Made by a program: the position numbers and the translations under genes
Shown: piece by piece, positions 2,792 through 58,306 of the stretch
How the letters are laid out: each line of letters opens with the position of its first letter
Position numbering within the stretch: the stretch's first letter is position 1
From: Acidobacteriota bacterium
GTDB taxonomy: Bacteria > Acidobacteriota > Thermoanaerobaculia > UBA5066
Reading direction: 5' to 3'
DNA length: 64,000 nucleotides
NCBI GenBank assembly: GCA_029567505.1
Contig: JAKPXO010000168.1
Coordinates: forward strand, 2,828-66,827
The notes under the pieces: model-generated
Database searches by the model: none
Told to the model about the DNA's origin: nothing
Seen by the model: only the letters and a program-made list of their open reading frames with translations

Positions 2792-5700
2792 CTACGCGCG
2801 AGGCGCGGCGGCGGCCTGCCAGTGGCGGCCGTCGGAGGCGTCGAACGAGACGAGGAGACCAAGGGAGGCGAGGCTCTCGAGGACGGGCTCCACGTCCTTC
2901 GGCTTCGCCTTCGCGAAGGCCGAAGTCACGGCGGCGAGCGAGCGGGGGGACGGCGCGCGGGCCATCAGGTCGCGGACGGCGGCGATCCGCTCGGGGAGCG
3001 CCTTCGGCCACGGGAGCGGCGCGGCCGGCTTCGCGGCCGGCTCCTCCTCCTCGTCATCTCCGCCCGGAAGAGTCTCCTGCGTCGCCGCCTTCGCGCCGCC
3101 CGGGTTCTGGAACTCGGGGCGGAGCCAGCGGACGAGGCCGCGCCTCTCCTCCTCGGCTCGCTCGGCGTTCAGCGCGACGAGCCGCTCGAGGATCTCCTCG
3201 TCGGTCAGCGTCGACGGCCAGCCGTAGGCGTCGAAGACCGCCGCGTCGAGGTCGTCGTGGATCTGCTTCAGGACGGAGACGAGCCCTTGCTCGTGGATCA
3301 CCTTCTCCTTCGCCGTCAGCGCCTCCCCCGACCGGAGCTTCTCGAGGACGTTGTACATCCCGGTGATCGTGAGGCCGGGATGGAGAGCCTGCTGGCGCTT
3401 GCGGTGCGCGTCGAGGGCTTCGCCGAGGGAGCGGATGAGGGCGGTTTGGGCGGGGGTGGAAGGCGGGAAGGGGAAGAGCAAGAAGCATGGCCCGTTCTGA
3501 TAGCGGGGGTCATTGCCCGCGCCCATTCGCCCGCCTCTCCGAAATGCCCATGTTACATGGACGCGAGAAGAAAGGACGCCGAGGTGCCAGGCATCGTCCG
3601 TGGCGATCCCGGCCAAGGAACCATCAGCCAGGGTTCCCGGGAGTGGAAGGAACACGAACGCTCTGTGTTTTGCGACTTCGGAAGTGGCGATGAACCGTCG
3701 AAGCCCCTTCAACGCCCGCCGCAGCTTCGGCGCGTTCTCGCCGAACAACCACCAGTTTCGCCGCCTCGTATCCCGCTTGTTCTGATCCCTTTCGGGCTTC
3801 ACAAGGTGCAAGAGCCGCTGATAACCGGCAGCGAACTCATTTCGCGCTTGCGCCTCGTCCAACCCGTAGAAATCCACGACGTAACGAACGCCTTCGGTCT
3901 GCGTCAGATCCCGGCCGGCAACGTAGCGCGGAAGAAAGGCCTCGGCGCGATGATCAACGGCGATCAAGTTGTCGCGTTCATCAGAGGTCAGAAGGAACCC
4001 GTCGCCCACGAGTTTGCAGCCCTGAAGGCACAGGTCTTGGTTCGCGACGAGCGCCCGAGTGCCGGAAACCGACGGTCCGGTCGTCAGGTCCGCGTGAATC
4101 GTGCCCTTCCGCGATCTGAAATCGACTCGACTTGAACCGTCATCCAGCTGCTCCTCATCGATGAGCGAGAGGAGGATGCCGGCGCCGGAGGATTGGGAGA
4201 GAACCGTCATCGCGACCCGAACCGCGGCCCCATCCGTCGAATCGACCCACGGGTGATCTGGTACCGCGAAGGCGAGATGGCATGCCGACGAAGCCACGAG
4301 GTGTCGCTGAACCACGCGTCGGTTGAACGTCTGCGTGATGCTGTTCGTCGTGATCAGGCCGAACCGCGTCAGCCTTTCTGCCCGCACCAGCGACGCCGCA
4401 TGGTTCCACCAGTACATGACGAGGTCCGCCGTCTCCGGCACGTCGTCGTGCGCGCGCCTCAGCGCCTCGACGTAGCCGTCCCCCAGCGCCGTCCGCATCC
4501 GCTTGTTCCCCACGAACGGCGGATTCCCCACCACGAACTCCGCCTCCGGCCATTCCGCCTTCCGCGGGTTCACGTACCTTTCCACCACCACCCGCGCGGT
4601 CTCGTCGGGGATCGGCTCCCCCGTCACCGGGCTCGGTTTCGTCGTCTCGCCGTCCCAGCGGGTGACGGGCTTCCCCGCCGCGTCCGTCTCCGGCTCGACG
4701 CGGTCCCAGGCGAGGACGGCGTCGCGGCACTCGATGTTCCCGTAGTCGCGGAGGACGGGCTCGTCGGGGGCGGTGTCGCCGTGGGTCCGGAAGTGCCACT
4801 GGAGCCAGCCGATCCAGAGGACGAGCTCGGCGATCTCCTTGGCCCAGCGCTTCACCTCGATTCCGAGGAGCTGGCGGGGCGTGACGCTGACGCCGTGGAG
4901 GTCGAGGAAGCCGCTCGCCCCGGTCTCGGGGCGCAGGTCGCGGAGGAGCCTCACGACCTCGGCCTCCAGCCGCTTGAAGAGGTCGAGCGTCACGTAGAGG
5001 AAGTTGCCGGTGCCGCAGGCGGGGTCGAGGACGCGCGTCGCGCAGAGCTTCTCGTGGAAGGCGCGGACGGCCCTCTCGGCCTCGGCGATCTTCGTCTCCG
5101 AGCCCTCCTCGACGAGGGTCCTCACGAGCGTCCGCACGACGTCCCACTCGGCGCGGAGCGGCTCCTCGACGGTCGCCCTCACGAGCCGCTCGACGTAGGC
5201 GCGCGGCGTGAAGTGGGCGCCGAGGGCGTGGCGCTCCTTCGGGTCGAGGGCCCTTTCGAGGAGCGTCCCGAAGATGGAGGGCTCGACGTTCTTCCAGTCG
5301 CAGCGGGCCGCCTCGTGAAGCATCTCGAGCTGGCGGCGCGTGAGGGCGAGGGCCTGCGGCGCCGCGAAGAGGCCGCCGTTGAAGCGGAGGAGCTCCCCCT
5401 CGAAGCCGAACGACCCGCCCCGGTTCATCGTCGTCCAGAGCGCCTGGACGTCGGGCGCGAACGTCTCCGGGTGCGGGATCCAGCGCTCGTAGAGGGTCCT
5501 CGTGAAGAGGCGGTTCGGGAGGAGGCCGACGTCCTCGGCGAACATCGTGAAGATGGCCCGCATCAGGAACGTCGCGACCGCCTCCGGGGAATGCCCCGCC
5601 TCGGCCAGCTCCTTCGAGAGGCCGGCGAGGTGCGCCGCGACCTCGCGCGTGACGGCGGTCGTCCGCCGGAGCGGGTCGAGGGAGAGCGGCTCCTCCCAGA

Positions 5701-41188: not shown

Positions 41189-41224
41189 CACGGAGCCCGC
41201 TCCGTCCCATATTCCCGCGCGACG

Positions 41225-41305
41225 GATGCCTAGGGGTGGCCGGGAAACCGGCCTGAGAGCAGACCCTCGAACCTGATCCGGGTCATACCGGCGAAGGGAA
41301 CGGCA
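41225..41305 (+). ncRNA. TPP (THI-box) riboswitch
   Basis: atgcctaGGGGTGGCCgggaaaccGGCCTGAGAgcagACCCtcgAACCTGATCCGGGTCATACCGGCGAAGGGAAcggc matches the conserved TPP aptamer. The CUGAGA bulge and the ACCUGAUCnGGnUAAUnCCnGCGnAGGGA pyrophosphate-sensor helix are both present. Downstream hairpins (cggaagcGGGTgcttccg; ccccgcGTgcgggg) directly abut the RBS GGAAGGAGG. Confidence 0.8.
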
Positions 41306-41388
41306 AACGGAAGCGGGTGCTTCCGCAAACCTCGAGAGACCCCGACGGATCCGCTTCGATCCCCGCGTGCGGGGAAGGAGGCGCTTCC

Positions 41389-49279: not shown

Positions 49280-49966
49280 ATGCAGGCGCGATCAGGACCC
49301 GAACGACACCGGCAGCTTCGCCAGTGGGTCGCCGACAGGCTTCGGGCCGAGATCCTCGAGGGGCGTCGCAGGCCCGGAGACTGGCTCCGTCAGGAGAGCG
49401 TCGCCCGCGAAGAGGGCGTCAGCCAGACCCCGGTTCGGGAGGCGCTCAAGCAGCTCGTCGCCGAGGGGCTGCTCGAGCATGTCCCCTACCGGGGCATCCG
49501 CGTCGTGACGCTCTCGGTCGAGGACGCCGAGGACCTCTACGCGAGCCGCGCCGTCCTCGAGCCGATGGCGGCGCGGCACGCGGCCGGCTCGATCACGGCC
49601 GACGAGGTCCGGGAGCTCGCCTCGCTCCACGAGCGAATGCTGGCCTGCGAGATCCCGGCCCGCCTCCGCGAGTACCGCGACCTGAACCGGCGCTTTCACG
49701 AGACGATCATCGCGGCCTCCCGCCGACCGTTCCTCACGCGAACGCTCGGCCACCTCTGGTCGGCCTTCCCGACGATGCTCTGGAGCAACGTACCCGGAAT
49801 CGCCTCGACCTCGCTCCCCGAGCGCGAGGACCCCGACGCCGCCGAGCACGCGGAGATCGTCGCGGCCCTCGTCGCGCACGACCCCGATCGCGCCGCCGCC
49901 GCCGTGAAGCGGCACGTCGAGGAGGCGGGACGGACGCTCGTCGCCGCCATGAGGGCCCATCCGTGA
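49280..49966 (+). CDS. GntR-family (FadR/FCD subfamily) transcriptional regulator
   Basis: Winged HTH (ESVAREEGVSQTPVREALKQLVAEGLL) and a C-terminal all-helical FCD-like domain. Confidence 0.8.
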   Translation: MQARSGPERHRQLRQWVADRLRAEILEGRRRPGDWLRQESVAREEGVSQTPVREALKQLVAEGLLEHVPYRGIRVVTLSVEDAEDLYASRAVLEPMAARHAAGSITADEVRELASLHERMLACEIPARLREYRDLNRRFHETIIAASRRPFLTRTLGHLWSAFPTMLWSNVPGIASTSLPEREDPDAAEHAEIVAALVAHDPDRAAAAVKRHVEEAGRTLVAAMRAHP

Positions 49967-50079
49967 TGCGCCCGACGGGGATCCAGTTTCTCTCCCCGCG
50001 TCGGGGCTCGAACGATCGCAAGCGAACACTCGTCCCGCGGGGCTCGAAACAAGCCCGAGGCCGGGCAAGAGGAGGAGTC

Positions 50080-52830
50080 ATGCCACGTCCGATCTCCGTC
50101 GTCACAGGAGCCGTTCTGATCCTGCTGTTGGGCCTCTCGGGCATCGCGAGCGCCCAGGGCACCGTCACTGGCAGCGTCCAGGGAATCGTCCGCGACTCCG
50201 AAGGGGGCGTCCTTCCCGGCGCCACCGTCACCGCCGTCTCGGGCGCTCTCGTTCGCGGTCGCATGACGACCACGACCGACGCACGCGGCGGCTGGCGCTT
50301 CCCCGCGCTCCCGCCGGGAACCTACGCGATCGAGGCCGAGCTGCAGGGCTTCCGGAAGATCCGCCGTGACGACGTGCGGGTCCGCCTCGGGCAGGCGATC
50401 GCCGTCGACCTCGTCCTCGCGCTCGAGAGCGTCGCCGCCGAGGCCATCGTCACGGCGGAGGCACCGCTCGTGAGCGTTGTCGAGAACAGGGTCTCGACGA
50501 GCTTCGGCGAGGACTACATCAGCCGGCAGGCCGTCCCGCGCAACTACTACCAGGTGATCACGACGGCCCCGGGCGTGAACGCCGACACCGGAACGAGCGG
50601 CAGCGCGATCCTCGCCTACGGCGGGACGAGTGAGAGCCAGAACGCCTTCACGCTGGACGGCGTGAACGTGGCCGATTCGGGCTCAGGCCAGCACTGGGTT
50701 CTGCCGAGCATCCAGTGGATGGAGGAGATTCAGATCGGCGGCCTCGGCGCAAACGCCGAGTACGGCGGCTACACGGGCGGCGTCATCAACGGCGTCACGA
50801 AATCGGGCGGCAACGAGTTCAAGGGGGCCCTCGAGGCGTACTACCAGCCCGACTCTTTCACCTCGGACAACTCGCCCGACACCGAGGACGAAACCTTCGA
50901 GTTCGAGAACTACGCCGTCAGCCTCGGCGGGCCGGTCGTGAAAGACCGGCTCTGGTTCTTCGCGAGCGCCGAGTACTGGCACCAGGAGACGACCCCGGTC
51001 GGCGCCACCGCCACCTCCGATCGGAAGATCCCCCGATTCCTCGGGAAGCTGACATACCAGGTGAGCGAAAAGAACCGCGTGTTCGGAATGTTCGAGTACG
51101 ACCACGTCGAGAACGAACGGCGCGGAATCGACGCCTACACCTTCCCCGAGGCGGCCCGCAAGCAGGACGGGCCGGGCGTCTCCTTCTCCGTGAACTGGGA
51201 GTCCATCCTCAACTCGTCCAACTTCCTCAACGTGAAGCTGACGGGCTACGACGGGAACGATGACTACCTCCCCTACAACGGCACCGACACGCCAGGCCAC
51301 GAGGACCTCTACGGCCACACCGGTTGGAGCCTCGTGAACGCGAAGATGCAGGATCTCTCCCATCGGCACCTCGTGACGGGCGACGCCTCGTGGAGCCTCT
51401 TCAAGGACGGCCTCTTCGGCAAGGCCGACTCGCATTCCTTCAAGTTCGGTGCCCTCTACGAGAAGGCCTCCACGACCGACGAGTGGCGGCGAAACGGCGG
51501 CTTCACCTACTACGACGACTCGACTCTCTGCCCCGGCGACACCGAGGCGGAGCAGATCGCGAACTACCTCCGCGACCCGAGCTGCGGCTGGTACGAGCGC
51601 TCGACCGGCTACGGCGAATACGAGGTCCACGCCGAGCACACCGGCTACACGTTCTACGCTCAGGACTCCATCCGCCTGAGCCGCGTGACGATCAACGCAG
51701 GCCTCCGCTACACGAACTACAGCGCCGGCTGGCGCGAGGGTTTCGGGAACCCCGACGTCTACGAGGTCGACTTCGTCGACCCGCGGATCGGATTCTCCTG
51801 GGACGTCCGCGGCGACGGACGCTGGGCGATCAAAGCGCACTGGGGCCGCTACCACTCCTCGATGTACACCTACCTCTTCGACCGCGAGGTCTCCGGCCAC
51901 GCCTCGGTTCCTGACGGCGACTGCTACTGGGACGGCTCGGCCTGGGGCGACTGCTCGTCCTCCACGCCCGACGAGGCGCCGATCGGCGACGTCGACCACC
52001 CGTACGTCGACGAGACCCTCTTCACCGTCGAGCACCAGCTCGGCCGAGACTCGTCGATCGGCGTCGACTTCATCGACCGTCGCTTCCGCAGCCTCATGGG
52101 CCTCTACAACACGAACAGCGACTACGAGCGGGTCACCGGCATCGCGAATCCCTTCGGAGGCGGCGACCTCGAGGTCTGGACGCTGAACGGCGACCCCGTC
52201 TGGTCACTGACGACCGACAACCCCGGCTACCGAGACTACGACTCCCTCGTCCTCCGGTACGACAAGCGGCACGCGAACGGCTGGCAGCTCCGCTCCTCCG
52301 TCGTCTGGACGGACCTCAAGGGGAACGTCCTGAAGAACAATGGCTACGCGCCCGAGCTCGAGGACCGCAACGGCCTCGTCAACGCCGACGGGCGGATGGA
52401 CTCCTCCTTCAACGAGTGGGAGTTCAAGGTGTCCGGCGCGGTCGACCTTCCGCTCGGGATCGTCGCGAGCGGCCAGTACACCTACCTCTCCGGCACCTAC
52501 TGGACGCCCTACGGCGACGTCCGCTCTTACGTCGACGGCAACTTCTACAGCGGCCGGAACGTCTTCCTCACCGAACGCGGATCCGAGAAGCTCCCGGCGC
52601 GGAACATCCTGGACCTCCGGCTCGGATGGGGGATGAACGTCCGCGGGCCGCTCCGCCTCGAGCTCTCCCTCGAGTGCTTCAACGTCCTCAACTCGGACAA
52701 GCCCCTCACCGTCGACAACTACTACGGCCGCTACCGCTCGGGCAGCTGGTCCGAGTACGCGGCCTTCGGCGAGGCTCTCAGCATCGAGGCCCCGCGCCAG
52801 TTCCGGGCCGGGCTCCGCCTGATCTTCTAG
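50080..52830 (+). CDS. Oar-like TonB-dependent receptor with N-terminal CarboxypepD_reg domain
   Basis: RBS GAGGAGGAG. Signal peptide. A CarboxypepD_reg-type beta-sandwich (GTVTGSVQGIVRDSEGGVLPGATVTA...TDARGGWRF), a plug, and a long barrel ending in the C-terminal Phe (RLIF*). Confidence 0.85.
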   Translation: MPRPISVVTGAVLILLLGLSGIASAQGTVTGSVQGIVRDSEGGVLPGATVTAVSGALVRGRMTTTTDARGGWRFPALPPGTYAIEAELQGFRKIRRDDVRVRLGQAIAVDLVLALESVAAEAIVTAEAPLVSVVENRVSTSFGEDYISRQAVPRNYYQVITTAPGVNADTGTSGSAILAYGGTSESQNAFTLDGVNVADSGSGQHWVLPSIQWMEEIQIGGLGANAEYGGYTGGVINGVTKSGGNEFKGALEAYYQPDSFTSDNSPDTEDETFEFENYAVSLGGPVVKDRLWFFASAEYWHQETTPVGATATSDRKIPRFLGKLTYQVSEKNRVFGMFEYDHVENERRGIDAYTFPEAARKQDGPGVSFSVNWESILNSSNFLNVKLTGYDGNDDYLPYNGTDTPGHEDLYGHTGWSLVNAKMQDLSHRHLVTGDASWSLFKDGLFGKADSHSFKFGALYEKASTTDEWRRNGGFTYYDDSTLCPGDTEAEQIANYLRDPSCGWYERSTGYGEYEVHAEHTGYTFYAQDSIRLSRVTINAGLRYTNYSAGWREGFGNPDVYEVDFVDPRIGFSWDVRGDGRWAIKAHWGRYHSSMYTYLFDREVSGHASVPDGDCYWDGSAWGDCSSSTPDEAPIGDVDHPYVDETLFTVEHQLGRDSSIGVDFIDRRFRSLMGLYNTNSDYERVTGIANPFGGGDLEVWTLNGDPVWSLTTDNPGYRDYDSLVLRYDKRHANGWQLRSSVVWTDLKGNVLKNNGYAPELEDRNGLVNADGRMDSSFNEWEFKVSGAVDLPLGIVASGQYTYLSGTYWTPYGDVRSYVDGNFYSGRNVFLTERGSEKLPARNILDLRLGWGMNVRGPLRLELSLECFNVLNSDKPLTVDNYYGRYRSGSWSEYAAFGEALSIEAPRQFRAGLRLIF

Positions 52831-52850
52831 GTCCCTCCTCCTCTCTCATC

Positions 52851-52884
52851 GGGGGCGGCCTGCCGGCCGCCCCCGCTTTTTCTT
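52851..52884 (+). terminator. Rho-independent terminator after the Oar-like receptor gene
   Basis: GGGGGCGGCC-tgcc-GGCCGCCCCC followed by GCTTTTTCTT. Confidence 0.6.
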
Positions 52885-52918: not shown

Positions 52919-53791
52919 ATGGTCCGCCGTGATTCCGCTCCACTCGTTCTCCTCGCCCTCCTCCTTGCCGTGCCGTCGATCCCGGCGCGCGCCGATGGAC
53001 CCGCGCCTCGCGCGGGGCATCTCGTTCTGATCGGCGGCGGCGAAAAGCCCGCGGACGCGATGCGCAAGTTCGTCGAGCTGGCCGGCGGGAAGGACGCGCC
53101 GATCGTCGTGATCCCGACGGCGTCCGGCGAGCCCGACGCCGCGGAGTACTACGAGAAGCTCTTCCGCGAGGAGCTCGGCTGTACCGACACCGTCTCGCTC
53201 CGGATCCGGAGCCGCGCCGACGCCGCGCGCCCCGACTTCGTCGCCCTCGCCCGGAAGGCCCGCGGCGTCTTCTTCGGGGGCGGAGACCAGATCCGGATCA
53301 CGAACGCCCTTCTCGGAACGCCGGTCGGGGACGCGATCGCCGCGGCGTTCGCCGAGGGCGCCGTCGTCGGCGGCACGTCGGCCGGAACGGCCTGCCAGAG
53401 CGAGCGGATGATCACCGGCGAAGGAGACTTCACTCAGGTGAGGACCCGCAGCGTGGAGCTCTGGCAGGGCCTCGGCTTCCTCCCCAGCGACGTCGTCGTC
53501 GACCAGCATTTCCTCCGCCGGCAGAGGCAGAACCGCCTCCTCTCGGTGGTCCTCGAGAAACCCGAGCTCCTCGGAGTCGGCGTCGACGAGGAGACGGCCA
53601 TCTGGGTTCGCCCCGACGGGACCTTCCAGGTCCTCGGGGAAAGCGGCGTCATGATCTTCGACGCGAAGGGGGTCTCGCTCTCCCGGCGGCCCCGCCCGAC
53701 CGGCCAGGACCTCCTCGGCGTCCGCGGCCTGACGCTCCACCTCCTCCTGCCTGGCGAGTCCTACGACCTCCGCACCCGCCGTCCCCTGTAG
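52919..53791 (+). CDS. secreted cyanophycinase-like peptidase (family S51)
   Basis: Signal peptide. LVLIGGGE, a nucleophile motif GGTSAG, and GFLP...DQHF. Exported, as extracellular CphE-type enzymes are. Confidence 0.75.
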   Translation: MVRRDSAPLVLLALLLAVPSIPARADGPAPRAGHLVLIGGGEKPADAMRKFVELAGGKDAPIVVIPTASGEPDAAEYYEKLFREELGCTDTVSLRIRSRADAARPDFVALARKARGVFFGGGDQIRITNALLGTPVGDAIAAAFAEGAVVGGTSAGTACQSERMITGEGDFTQVRTRSVELWQGLGFLPSDVVVDQHFLRRQRQNRLLSVVLEKPELLGVGVDEETAIWVRPDGTFQVLGESGVMIFDAKGVSLSRRPRPTGQDLLGVRGLTLHLLLPGESYDLRTRRPL

Positions 53792-53805
53792 CGGGTACCG
53801 GAGGT

Positions 53806-53873
53806 GGTGCCAGGCGTGAAATCGTGCAGTATTCGCAAAGAGGAGAACAATACATGATTTCACGCCTGGCACC
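53806..53873 (+). promoter_or_regulatory. 18-bp perfect inverted repeat enclosing the RBS and start codon of the capA-like gene
   Basis: GGTGCCAGGCGTGAAATC (53806-53823) and GATTTCACGCCTGGCACC (53856-53873), separated by a 32-nt AT-rich loop gtgcagtattcgcaaAGAGGAGaacaatacAT. Immediately downstream are three imperfect ~15-nt direct repeats (GGCACCGYGTGGGG). Confidence 0.5.
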
Positions 53874-55251
53874 GCGTGGGGTGGCACCGTGTGGGGGGGC
53901 ACCGCAGTGGGTGCCACTGATTCGGGTCCTCGCGGCGTTCGTTCTCGTCTCCGGCCTGGCGTCGGCGGAGCCGCCCGGGTGGGACCAGGGGCGGTCCGTG
54001 TACGAGCGGCGGATTCGGCCGCCGGAGGCGCCGGAGAAGGTCGACTGGGAGGCCCGGGTGACGGCGCTCCTGCGCGAGGAGCCGGGAGACCTCGTCGTCG
54101 CCGCCGTCGGCGACCTGATCTTCAATGAGCGGATCAGCCACCTGAAGGAGCCGGAGCGGAAGAACCTTCTCCGCATCCTGCAGGAAGCCGACGTCGCGAT
54201 CGGGAACCTCGAGTTCTCGATCAACGACCGGCCCGAGCTTCAGAAGGTCTTCTACAACTTCCGCGCGCCGCGCGAGTTCGCGTGGGAGCTCGCCGCCACC
54301 GGGATCAACCTCGTGAGCCTGGCGAACAACCACGCCCTCGACTTCGGCCCCGAGGGGCTCCTCGAGTGCCTGCGCGCTCTCGACCTGTCGGGGATCGCCC
54401 ACGCCGGGGCCGGCCGGACCCTCGCAGAGGCGCACGAGGCCGGCACGAAGCGGCCCCCCGGGCAGAAGGGGCGCGTCGCGCTCCTCTCCTACATGCGCTT
54501 CTGGACCGACCGCGACCGCTGCTCGGACCCGGCCGGACCGTGCCTCGCGACGATCGACCCGGCGACCGTCCTCGTCGCCCGACCCGACGGGACGGTCGAG
54601 TCGGTGGAGGGGCCGCAGGAGCGGGACGTGGCGCGCATGGAGGAGGACGTCCTCCTGGCGAAGCGGCGTTTCGGCCCCGTCTTCGTCGCGTACCACGTCC
54701 ACGACGTGAGCCACGCGCGGGTCTTCGGCATCCAGGACACGACCCCGCCGAACGAGGAGATCCCGTTCCGTCGCGCGGTCGACGCGGGAGCCGACGCCGT
54801 CCTCGGGAGCGGCCCGCACGTCCTGCGCGGAATCGAGCTGAGGAACGGACGACCGATCTTCTACAGCCTGAGCAACTTCGTCTACCAGTACCGCACGCCG
54901 AAGGCGATCCCGACGGATCTCCCCCACCAGCGCGACTCCGAGATGCCGCGCCCCGCGAACGTGTCGGTCTGGGACCGGCGCGACTCGCGTGAGGTCATGG
55001 AGAGCGTCGTCGCGCGGATGACGTACCGCGGCGGCGCGCTCCGGAAGCTCGAGCTGATTCCCGTGACGATCGACGACGAGGGACCGCTCTACGGAGTCCC
55101 TCGGCTCGCGTCGACGAAGAGGGCGGAGGAGATCGTCGCGCTCCTCCAGCGGCTCTCCGCGCCGTACGGCACGAAGATCGCGCTGAAGGACTGGTACGGC
55201 GAGGTAGAGCTGTCGGCCGTGAACGACGGCGCGCAGGCCCCCTCGGAGTAA
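53854..55251 (+). CDS. CapA/PgsA-like poly-gamma-glutamate biosynthesis-type metallophosphatase-fold protein
   Basis: ATG at 53854 with AGAGGAG 8 nt upstream. An alternative GTG at 53908 gives a cleaner signal peptide (MPLIRVLAAFVLVSGLASA). CapA motifs GDLIFNE, ANNHALDFG, and the VAYHVHDVSH core. Confidence 0.8.
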   Translation: MISRLAPRGVAPCGGAPQWVPLIRVLAAFVLVSGLASAEPPGWDQGRSVYERRIRPPEAPEKVDWEARVTALLREEPGDLVVAAVGDLIFNERISHLKEPERKNLLRILQEADVAIGNLEFSINDRPELQKVFYNFRAPREFAWELAATGINLVSLANNHALDFGPEGLLECLRALDLSGIAHAGAGRTLAEAHEAGTKRPPGQKGRVALLSYMRFWTDRDRCSDPAGPCLATIDPATVLVARPDGTVESVEGPQERDVARMEEDVLLAKRRFGPVFVAYHVHDVSHARVFGIQDTTPPNEEIPFRRAVDAGADAVLGSGPHVLRGIELRNGRPIFYSLSNFVYQYRTPKAIPTDLPHQRDSEMPRPANVSVWDRRDSREVMESVVARMTYRGGALRKLELIPVTIDDEGPLYGVPRLASTKRAEEIVALLQRLSAPYGTKIALKDWYGEVELSAVNDGAQAPSE

Positions 55252-55278
55252 ACCTCCGCGGGCCCGGCGGCGGTGGCG

Positions 55279-56629: not shown

Positions 56630-58306
56630 TCAGCGGTCCGCGGCGAGCCAGGCGGTCGCGAGCCCGAGGCGGGTGACGCGGCGAACCTGAGCCGGGTCGA
56701 TCGAGGCGGGCGTGTCCCCCGGGCGGTGGTAGTCCGGGTGGAAGTTGCCGAAGAACCGGACGAAGGGGACGCGCGCCCGCGCGAAGTCGCGGTAGTCGCT
56801 GCCGCCGTTGACCCCCTCGGTCCAGTCGAGGTGCAGGGCGAGCTCGGCCGCGCTCCCGGCCCGCGCGAGGAGCGGCCCGAGGTCGGGCGCGAAGCTCGCC
56901 ACCCCGGGCTCGATGAACGAATCGGGGCGCGCGGCGGCGAGGAACGCCGCCGCGCCGGGGAGCTTCGCCGCGGTGACGAGGTCGCGGATCTCCTCCGCCT
57001 TCCACGGGTGAGCGACCATGTCGAAGTTCAGGTAGACGGCCGTCCTCGCGAGCGGCCAGAGCGGGTCCCGGACCCAGTGCCCCGAGCCGATCTTGTCCTC
57101 CTCTTCGCCGGTCCAGAGCGCGAAGACGAGCGTCCGCTTCGGCTGGACGGGAGACGACGCGAAGGCGCGCGCGATCTCGAGGAGCGCCGCGACGCCCGAG
57201 GCGTTGTCGTCGGCCCCGGGGTGAGTCACCCCGTCCACGCGCCCGAGGTGATCGGCGTGCGCGCCGAGGACGACGGCCTCGCCCTTCAGGGCCGGATCGC
57301 TCCCCGGGAGGATCCCGACGACGTTCCGCGAGAGGCCCGTCTTCTCGACCGCCGTCGCGCGGAGCGTCGCGGAGGCGGGAAGGGCGCGCGAGGGCTCTTC
57401 CGCCTTCGGCGCGGCGCCGAGGAGCGCCTCGAGGACGGCGGGCGCGCAGCGGAAGACGAGCGGCTCGAGCGAGGGCCCCTCCGCCATCGACCGGAACGCG
57501 AACGTCGCGGGCTTCTCGGTCCCGAGGAGGCGCGTTGCCCAGTCGTTCCCCTCGACGGCGAGGACGGCCACCGCGCCGAGCGCCTTCGCCGTCTCCAGCT
57601 TCGCGGCCCAGCGCTCCTCGGTGTCGCCCGCGGCGTACTTCTCGACCAGATCCTTCCTCGCCCACGCTTCTCCCGGCGGGAGCCCCTCGCGGAGGACGAC
57701 GACCCTCCCCTTCACGTCGAGGCCCCTGTAGTCGTCCCGCGCCGGCGCGCTCTCGCGGATGCCGTAGCCCGCGAAGACGAGCGGTCCCGAGACGGAGCGG
57801 GCGGGCTGCGGCGGGACGACGACGTCGACGCCGTGAACGAACGTCCGTCGCGCCGTCGTCTCCCCGGCCCGGCGCTCGATCTCGACGGAGCCCCCCGGCT
57901 CGCGGATCTCGCGCATCGGCACCGGCTGGAAGTACGTGCGTGCGCCCTGTGCGTCGGTGGCGCCGTACGGCGCCACGCCGGCGAGGGCCAGCTGCGCCGC
58001 CCCGTATTCGAGCGCGGCCTCGAGGCCGTCGCTCCCGAGGCCACGCCCCCCGAGAGCCGGCGCGGCGAGGAAGTCGACGTGCGCGCGGAGCGCCGCGGCA
58101 CGAACGCCGTCGAGCGCCGCGCGGAGCGGCGCCGGAATCGCCTCGCCCGCCTTCGGGAGGACGAACCGGGGCCGCGCGGCGTCCGCGGCCGAAGTCGCAG
58201 GAGCAGCGGAAGCCGGAGACGGCTGCGCGACAGCCGGTGGAGCGGCGAGCACGCCGCCGAACGCCGCGGCGATCGTGAGGGCAGGAACGAGCACCGTCTT
58301 CCTCAT
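56630..58306 (-). CDS. M28-family aminopeptidase with PA domain, secreted
   Basis: Start at MRKTVLVPALTIAAAFGGVLAAPPAVA (RBS GGAGAGG). Zn-ligand motifs HADHLG, GADDNASG and EEDKIGS. The ATG overlaps the epimerase stop (ATGA). Confidence 0.8.
   Translation of the reverse strand: MRKTVLVPALTIAAAFGGVLAAPPAVAQPSPASAAPATSAADAARPRFVLPKAGEAIPAPLRAALDGVRAAALRAHVDFLAAPALGGRGLGSDGLEAALEYGAAQLALAGVAPYGATDAQGARTYFQPVPMREIREPGGSVEIERRAGETTARRTFVHGVDVVVPPQPARSVSGPLVFAGYGIRESAPARDDYRGLDVKGRVVVLREGLPPGEAWARKDLVEKYAAGDTEERWAAKLETAKALGAVAVLAVEGNDWATRLLGTEKPATFAFRSMAEGPSLEPLVFRCAPAVLEALLGAAPKAEEPSRALPASATLRATAVEKTGLSRNVVGILPGSDPALKGEAVVLGAHADHLGRVDGVTHPGADDNASGVAALLEIARAFASSPVQPKRTLVFALWTGEEEDKIGSGHWVRDPLWPLARTAVYLNFDMVAHPWKAEEIRDLVTAAKLPGAAAFLAAARPDSFIEPGVASFAPDLGPLLARAGSAAELALHLDWTEGVNGGSDYRDFARARVPFVRFFGNFHPDYHRPGDTPASIDPAQVRRVTRLGLATAWLAADR

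Follow-up and report, generated by a model that had tools for sequence, protein, structure and literature searches.

The inverted repeat at the cphE-capA junction

We studied an inverted repeat at the start of capA, a gene for a CapA-like exported protein that follows cphE, the gene for a secreted cyanophycinase, on contig JAKPXO010000168.1 of an Acidobacteriota bacterium of the Thermoanaerobaculia (the 64-kb stretch of this contig that we analysed is called the window; Table 1 lists the features). The gap between cphE and capA is 62 nt long and is occupied by this palindrome, which runs on into the capA coding sequence. In an earlier reading of the letters without database searches (the original prediction), the palindrome had been described as a perfect 18-bp inverted repeat, and this proved correct: GGTGCCAGGCGTGAAATC at 53806-53823 returns as its exact reverse complement at 53856-53873, with a separation of 32 nt. 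Counting its imperfect arms of up to 38 nt (53797-53834 and 53845-53882), it is the longest inverted repeat within the window; the chance expectation was 0.04 matches at up to 3 mismatches, and two matches were obtained in 0 of 100 shuffles. The second-longest one lies at 1672-1733, is GC-rich and has 30-nt arms (80% complementary) with a 2-nt gap.

Folding of the RNA from 53780 to 53940 gave -88.2 kcal/mol (z = -5.95), with a continuous 23-bp stem in which 53804-53826 is paired with 53853-53875. As had been claimed, this stem encloses the translation start in the RNA: the Shine-Dalgarno (SD) sequence GAGGAG lies in the apex and the AUG is stem-paired, its three bases facing 53825-53823 as A-U, U.G and G-C (a single G.U). 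Three other assemblies of this species contain the element and the 15-nt direct repeats that follow it without a single base difference, so it is not an assembly artefact.

A dispersed repeat family whose arms flank a transposase gene

Scanning of all fetched DNA for both arms, including with blastn-short, revealed that two copies of a 28-nt terminal-inverted-repeat (TIR) unit, joined head to head as a dimer, make up the inverted repeat, and that this unit is dispersed in the Thermoanaerobaculia and Holophagales (Acidobacteriota). The canonical unit reads GG(T/G)G(C/T)CAGGCGTGAAATCGTGTATTGTT, the palindrome form of the family, near-perfect over ~58 bp, consists of GGTGCCAGGCGTGAAATCGTGTATTGTT, a loop of 2-5 nt and AACAATACACGATTTCACGCCTGGCACC, and the consensus of the aligned copies immediately before the arm is CCCCCCGGAAnT. 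In a metagenome scan with one 16-mer, about a dozen of the matches listed (at least 120 loci) held genuine elements or arms and most were chance matches. Near-perfect palindromes stood at unrelated intergenic sites in L056, L059, L074 and L081 (L numbers denote fetched loci), again among the matches listed; L055 and L088 have diverged yet self-complementary versions, and L021 has an incomplete one. Dimers thus occur at no fewer than eight, that is, at least 8, non-orthologous sites in the fetched loci, in addition to solo arms (L041, L095 and L118), and the copies occupy intergenic positions between genes that run in the same direction or converge. One site offers a comparison of filled with empty: between the convergent capA and ompA-like genes a second canonical dimer is present in L005 (5402-5460) and L011 (5395-5453), and the same position is empty in the window (55252-55278), L003 and L008. 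We built a covariance model, R1, from 18 copies; in the window it recovered the capA copy only (86.9 bits; next match, 15 bits). The 28-bp helix is 91.9% paired and has nine pairs changed on both sides, which was matched by 0 of 500 shuffles. A scan of viral contigs gave chance matches only, besides an unrelated CGTGAAATCG array in L141. This array, at 4472-4537 of an IMG/VR contig, is made of CGTGAAATCG-like direct and inverted repeats upstream of an open reading frame (ORF); it has a short core in common with the arms and looks unrelated.

The same arms surround a gene. In L130, two of them stand 1 kb apart around a 310-aa ORF with a Y1_Tnp domain (PF01797; 1e-14) and a C-terminal Bac_DnaA_C domain (PF08299; 2e-9), in which the HUH motif reads PNHVHL and the tyrosine motif RYIHRNP. 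The best NCBIfam match of this ORF was the REP (repetitive extragenic palindromic)-associated tyrosine transposase, or RAYT, model NF047646 (72.5 bits vs. a cut-off of 80; IS200 reached 19 bits), and its homologs run into the hundreds, including a tight cluster of 72-91% identity in the Thermoanaerobaculia, several members of which are named RayT by JGI. In all distinct loci that we fetched (eight), the transposase gene lies directly upstream of a HAD hydrolase gene, usually after a BMC/EutN operon. Arms in inverted orientation bracket it in L130, L152, L155, L156, L161, L165, L168 and L178-L180, and two metagenome-assembled genomes (MAGs) yielded both this arrangement and the capA locus (L152 with L004; L161 with L012). 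The arms of the family thus flank a syntenic Y1/HUH transposase gene with a C-terminal DnaA-like helix-turn-helix (HTH), which makes the arrangement a TIRtron of the TIRYT class, in the RAYT-like branch. A Y1 domain joined to Bac_DnaA_C defines subclass 2.1.2 of Quentin et al. (2018; PMC6006769), which is equated with the TIRYT/TIRtron class; this class was described as RAYT-like genes flanked by long inverted repeats that share GGGGWSAS, and its repeats, which include an Acidobacteria-specific group, are found singly, as dimers or in groups (Di Nocera et al., 2013; PMC3733652). The arm starts with GGGGTCAG, which fits GGGGWSAS, in L005, L007, L012, L055, L155-L157, L161 and L168, and with CGTGCCAG in L004 and L011.

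The spacing at the two ends of the transposase gene differs. In eight distinct TIRtrons (L130, L152, L155, L156, L161, L165, L168 and L178), the 5' arm carries a hexamer, TATTGT, TATTAT or TAGTAT, exactly 6 nt before the transposase ATG, and the 6-nt spacers vary in sequence and are without an SD; the distance from the transposase stop codon to the 3' arm is variable, from -1 to ~90 nt. The geometry of the hexamer fits, and suggests, a leaderless transposase mRNA that would arise from an arm-borne -10 box. Two variants of the arrangement were also seen. In L165 (9690-10927), and likewise in L166 and L167, 1,237 nt separate the arms vs. ~1,020 nt as usual and the called transposase has only 269 aa, so the 5' part of the gene seems to be disrupted or to bear an insertion. 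In L179 (1364-1422) and L180 (1152-1210) a full dimer, not a single arm, lies 3' of the transposase gene.

The capA copy, its flank duplications and its neighbours

For comparison of the capA copies, 12 related loci were fetched from MAGs of Holophagales/Thermoanaerobaculia (CapA 74-89% identical), 11 of which contain the capA 5' end (L009 is cut off within the gene). The palindrome is at the same place in nine of these 11 (L001-L007, L011 and L012), with nearly unchanged arms, although neither the intergenic flank nor the N-terminal part of the coding sequence can be aligned; overall, we count the orthologous copy in 10 of 12 related loci. L008 and L010 are without it, and in them the cyanophycinase stop overlaps a capA GTG start (GTGA), which is the mark of a translationally coupled operon. 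On the CapA tree, the sister of L008, which lacks the inverted repeat (IR), is L007 (94% identity), which carries it; L010 takes a nested position, and the outgroup, L011, again has the IR. Because of this placement, we take presence of the palindrome as ancestral, with two losses.

Several features set the capA copies apart from the rest of the family. ATG is found in 10 of 10 capA copies vs. none of eight other copies, all of which read ACG there, and in L003, L004, L006 and L012 no start codon other than the right-arm ATG precedes the hydrophobic core of the signal peptide. Codon 2 is ATT in all 10 capA copies and codon 3 is TCA in nine, although ATT makes up 6% of Ile codons and TCA 2.4% of Ser codons locally; since these rare codons stay conserved, the right arm is constrained as a nucleotide sequence and not as protein alone. 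The apex, a loop of only a few nucleotides in non-capA copies and a 12-nt spacer in the window, is enlarged in nine of the 10 capA copies and holds a purine-rich SD 7-10 nt before the ATG; the remaining copy, that of L011, lacks an SD-type apex and is a perfect 66-bp palindrome. Across the capA copies, the distance from the left-arm GTG to the ATG is constant at 31-32 nt. These shared features of ATG, apex and spacing indicate that the capA copies are one old, vertically inherited insertion that was rebuilt as a translation start. Comparison with the other copies shows the co-option: a change of ACG to ATG in the right arm gave the start codon, the same arm codes for residues 1 to 6 or 7 of the signal peptide, and the apex was opened into the SD spacer.

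The outer 6 nt of the arms exist in three variants (GGTGCC/GGCACC, CGTGCC/GGCAC(A/G) and GGGGTC/GACCCC), which do not track the CapA tree. In four of four cases (L004/L152, L012/L161, L005a/b and L011a/b), the capA copy has the same outer variant as another copy of the family, or as the TIRtron, in its genome, and from this agreement we conclude that it undergoes concerted evolution with the rest of the family. The arms of L003 are of two types (GGTGCC, left; GACCCC, right) and thus form a hybrid. The concerted change could stem from gene conversion or from selection that the resident Y1 protein exerts.

A triple direct repeat had also been reported behind the palindrome and is indeed present: TGGCACCGCGTGGGG (53867-53881), TGGCACCGTGTGGGG (53882-53896) and GGGCACCGCAGTGGG (53897-53911), followed by a partial TGCCAC. 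It is translated in frame as APRGV-APCGG-APQWV and extends the n-region of the signal peptide, the N-terminus of which reads MISRLAP(RGVAPCGGAPQWV)PLIRV. The alternative GTG start that had been placed at 53908 did not hold, since the GTG there (53907-53909) is out of frame; in-frame GTGs are at 53881 and 53911. We found similar flank duplications throughout the family, with ten cases at nine of the 18 dimers, to which the TIRtron 5' arms of L165 and L168 add one each. They start 6-7 nt within the outer end of the arm and take in ~8 nt of unique flank, their left edge is fixed between GCC and TGG, a C-T step, and their period is mostly 15 nt (eight cases), otherwise 14 nt (two cases), 12 nt or 10 nt (one case each). 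They occur in a coding context in the window, L002, L007 and L011, and in a non-coding context in L004, on the 5' side in L011, and in L056, L059, L074, L165 and L168; the unique parts differ among loci, so the events were independent. The 15-nt repeats at capA are hence the usual flank duplication of the family, a general by-product that is not specific to capA.

Upstream of the element, the terminator behind the gene for a TonB-dependent-receptor-like protein marks where the cphE-capA transcription unit begins; between it and cphE, ~35 nt are left for the cphE promoter and ribosome-binding site. The secreted cyanophycinase that had been predicted as the neighbour of capA was borne out by a TIGR02069 match of 193 bits vs. 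a cut-off of 127 and by a signal peptide, and gene callers returned exactly the 465-aa CapA-like product from the start within the right arm. No terminator was called on the + strand in 53000-54500. A reading of the palindrome itself as an intrinsic terminator is ruled out by this and by the GCGUGGGG that follows the stem instead of a U run. Elsewhere in the window, there is a TPP (thiamine pyrophosphate) riboswitch at 41222-41317 (+) (RF00059; 61.5 bits, above the gathering score), and in an M28 peptidase gene 13 single-nucleotide differences are clustered in 136 nt (56870-57005) between the window and the otherwise identical L158 and L160. Recombination, or a patch that varies among strains, may account for this cluster.

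Table 1. Features at the cphE-capA junction, in positions of the window
Feature	Position	Strand	Remark
Intrinsic terminator, 11 G-C pairs, 4-nt loop, T run	52850..52884	+	3' of TonB-dependent-receptor-like ORF (49324-52830)
Cyanophycinase gene cphE (Peptidase_S51) with signal peptide	52919..53791	+	stop TAG 14 nt 5' of left arm
5' flank ACCGGAGGT	53797..53805	+	similar to a motif (CCGGAAAT / CCGAGAnn) that other copies have on one side
Left arm, 28-nt TIR/REP-like unit GGTGCCAGGCGTGAAATCGTGCAGTATT	53806..53833	+	first 18 nt are the perfect repeat of the original prediction
-10-like hexamer CAGTAT	53827..53832	+	inner end of left arm
Spacer between arms CGCAAAGAGGAG	53834..53845	+	contains SD GAGGAG (53840-53845), 8 nt 5' of ATG
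Right arm AACAATACATGATTTCACGCCTGGCACC	53846..53873	+	codes for M-I-S-R-L-A-P
capA start codon ATG	53854..53856	+	inside stem
CapA-like exported protein (PGA_cap, PF09587), 465 aa	53854..55251	+	Pfam match, gene callers
Three 15-nt tandem units and partial fourth	53867..53917	+	unit is right-arm outer 7 nt TGGCACC plus 8 nt

Readings of the element and related systems

We consider it highly probable that the window copy is a dispersed repeat dimer of the TIRYT/RAYT type that was co-opted as the capA start, with an effect on expression that we infer. The feature belongs to the known kind of TIRYT/RAYT-associated dimers, in a clade where they were previously undescribed. By analogy with characterised RAYTs and IS200/IS605 enzymes, the family would presumably have been made, and kept uniform, by the Y1 enzyme acting on the folded single-stranded hairpin. 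At capA, RNA that reads through from cphE would carry both arms and would fold into the 23-bp stem, with the AUG and the initial 20 nt of the capA coding sequence base-paired in it. By simple reckoning, without a tool, a ribosome that stops at the cphE stop codon (53789-53791) extends only to ~53801, which is too short a reach to melt the AUG-containing stretch of the stem, and we therefore rejected translational coupling by the cphE ribosome. Because the stem pairs the AUG and the stopping ribosome cannot free it, the modelled fold predicts that translation of capA is probably weaker than that of cphE and no longer coupled to it. To open -18 to +13, a predicted 31.6 kcal/mol would be needed in the window, 15-51 kcal/mol in IR-bearing orthologs and 20-25 kcal/mol in IR-less ones, values that are high throughout because this 70% GC genome folds strongly everywhere.

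A number of observations weigh against this reading of the element. The opening cost in the window is only 6-12 kcal/mol above that of the IR-less orthologs, and that of L004 is below it; in the helix, 19 G.U cells stand against 24 A.C cells, so that G.U is not in excess and there is no bias for RNA over DNA. The window holds one copy of the repeat and no Y1 gene, and look-ups of close homologs for a Y1 gene in GCA_029571855.1, taken as the source assembly, matched other assemblies only. Searching ~270 kb of related loci with R1 returned no additional dimers; as only one copy was found in the window as well, the family appears to be low-copy, unlike classical REPINs, whose populations number tens to hundreds per genome. 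The arm is without internal self-complementarity and without a conserved GTAG, so it is not a classical REP. The arm start in the window, L001, L002 and L006, GGTGCCAG, has two changes from GGGGWSAS, and from its letters we read the window's start as a two-step derivative of a GGGGWSAS-type start. Also, to our knowledge, the transposase activity of a TIRYT has never been demonstrated.

How the co-opted dimer acts on capA may be viewed differently if its arm carries a promoter. An inward -10 box at the inner end of the arm, comparable to the transposase promoters that IS ends carry, would in that case let CAGTAT start a capA mRNA at ~53839, at the SD, and this mRNA would be free of the stem because the left arm would be absent from it; the hairpin would be confined to the cphE read-through RNA, so that the identity of the element would be unchanged and the mechanism different. 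The fixed hexamer-to-ATG spacing in the eight TIRtrons, with its differing, SD-less spacers, and the unlike, variable distance to the 3' arm speak for such a promoter, as does the fact that the capA copies keep a hexamer of the YAnTAT type (CAGTAT, CATTAT or TATTAT), then 6 nt and then the purine-rich SD tract, at the constant GTG-to-ATG distance. However, a sigma-70 scan of the window element, one TIRtron 5' arm and the L005 copy found no promoter, and the arms contain no two-hexamer sigma-70 match, although the promoter rules of this bacterial class may differ. CAGTAT agrees with TATAAT at only three of six positions and has no recognisable -35, the IR-less orthologs show a cphE-capA operon with the GTGA overlap, and an arm-borne promoter alone leaves the frozen synonymous sites of the right arm unexplained. 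We treat the stem-free transcript as a tentative alternative, and the confinement of the hairpin to read-through RNA as equally doubtful; the read-through hairpin effect is ranked above the arm-borne promoter, and both together could operate. Should the genome's TIRYT still recognise the capA dimer, the left arm would act as the inward -10 promoter that also yields the leaderless transposase mRNA in the TIRtron, the DnaA-HTH/Y1 protein would bind the arms, and the 14-15-nt duplications, with their edge 7 nt within the arm, would be in-vivo footprints of nicking and strand transfer by Y1, a proposal that we regard as unlikely.

The original prediction had taken the palindrome for a dedicated regulator or operator of capA, which is untenable for a copy of a dispersed family that also flanks a transposase gene. 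An SD in the apex, an AUG in the stem and conservation in 10 orthologs are what one would expect of an RNA thermometer or another gene-specific translational switch evolved for capA, but the equal sequence stands at unrelated loci and around the transposase gene, the arm variants track the repeat family of the genome and not the gene, and physiological temperatures are too low to melt a stem of 23 bp, mostly G-C, at about -40 kcal/mol. A thermometer in particular was discarded on the near-perfect 23-bp stem within a fold of -88 kcal/mol and on the presence of its sequence at unrelated loci; a search of Rfam gave no family at gathering thresholds and only sub-threshold matches to miRNA hairpins at relaxed ones. 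We give such a riboregulator hardly any credence. Control through a domesticated Y1/DnaA-HTH protein, for which the palindrome would be the DNA or RNA site, fares a little better, since the capA copy holds both arms nearly intact while CapA diverges to 76% identity, the genome-specific arm variant is tracked in four of four genomes, and the transposase is syntenic and apparently single-copy, like domesticated RAYTs. Against it stand a published analysis that sees no likeness of TIRYT inverted repeats to DnaA boxes (PMC6006769), gene conversion among family copies, which accounts equally well for the concerted changes, and the hybrid arms of L003; such an operator appears improbable to us. Stochastic switching by the 15-nt repeats, also suggested originally, would require a contingency locus whose copy number changes often to give CapA variants. 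Unit number does differ among species (three in the window; two in L002, L007 and L011; zero or one in L003-L006 and L012), but the unit is a multiple of 3 and stays in frame, so the repeats cannot switch capA on or off by frameshift, the units are by now no longer identical to one another (91% identity over 38 nt), and non-coding copies carry equal duplications. The comparison of repeat copy number among strains that had been proposed as a check shows no difference across three independent, near-identical assemblies of the same species, and thus no sign of rapid switching; this reading is the least credible of all. Two more candidates were dropped: a sigma-54 promoter at CTGGCAC, of which by eye only the -24 half is present with no TTGC at the right spacing, and an invertible promoter (inverton), as just 12-32 nt lie between the arms, where an inverton would have a segment of 100 bp or more, and there is no recombinase among five ORFs checked against Pfam.

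Start-occluding hairpins such as the ROSE and fourU RNA thermometers hold the SD or AUG in a stem that must open for initiation, and they are short, mismatch-rich and gene-specific; the capA stem differs from them in that it is 23 bp long, nearly perfect and common to a mobile-element family. The Correia elements of Neisseria are small inverted-repeat elements that are co-transcribed with neighbouring genes, can supply promoters and form a long hairpin that RNase III is able to cut. They are 100-155 bp long, have another sequence and depend on another transposase, and we know of no report that they supply a start codon. They are nonetheless a useful model for what a dimer of the capA type can do to an operon.

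The closest relatives are the TIRtrons of the TIRYT class (PMC3733652, PMC6006769). As in these, a RAYT-like Y1 protein has a C-terminal Bac_DnaA_C HTH, long inverted repeats instead of self-folding REPs surround the gene, the repeats of several genomes here start with GGGGTCAG, in line with GGGGWSAS (the window variant, GGTGCCAG, differs), and further repeats occur as singles or dimers elsewhere in the genome. In contrast, the Thermoanaerobaculia/Holophagales host and this 28-nt unit are absent from both papers, one dimer is fixed here at an orthologous site where it gives the SD, the start codon and the start of the signal peptide, and the regular 15-nt flank duplications are undescribed for TIRtrons. 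With the REPIN-RAYT system (Bertels and Rainey, 2011; PMC3116915, PMC5581495), the element shares two inverted units that form one long hairpin, a vertically inherited, apparently single-copy Y1 transposase gene flanked by units, genome-specific variants that suggest co-evolution of repeat and enzyme, and intergenic positions between same-direction or convergent genes. Unlike REPINs, the units have no GTAG tag, are not individually palindromic and are separated by only 2-5 nt, copies seem to be few (one in the 64-kb window), and the enzyme has the extra DnaA-like domain. RAYTs that have been studied cut single-stranded DNA at CT dinucleotides beside the hairpin (PMC8266576). With IS200/IS605 ends and the TnpA-REP enzymes of E. 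coli and S. maltophilia (PMC3333891, PMC8266576), our system has in common an HUH/Tyr enzyme with PNHVHL and RYIHRNP and a DNA hairpin as the likely substrate, and the C-T step at the duplication edge matches as well; the putative cut would lie within the stem base here, not outside it.

A palindrome that was puzzling and 'riboswitch-like' thus becomes a recognisable object of a repeat family, and whenever a striking perfect hairpin is met at a gene start in a high-GC genome, the repeat families of that genome should be the first thing to compare it with. The locus documents the co-option of a RAYT/TIRYT-type repeat that was fixed at one orthologous site across a family-level clade and, as its sequence indicates, rebuilt as a translation start with SD, ATG and signal-peptide n-region. 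The fixed duplication edge and the fixed 6-nt spacing between arm and ATG are leads on the biochemistry of TIRYTs. If the duplications do mark nicking by the Y1 enzyme, they would be the first sequence-level clue to the TIRYT cut site, and if a TIRYT recognises the capA dimer, capA would be under transposase-dependent control.

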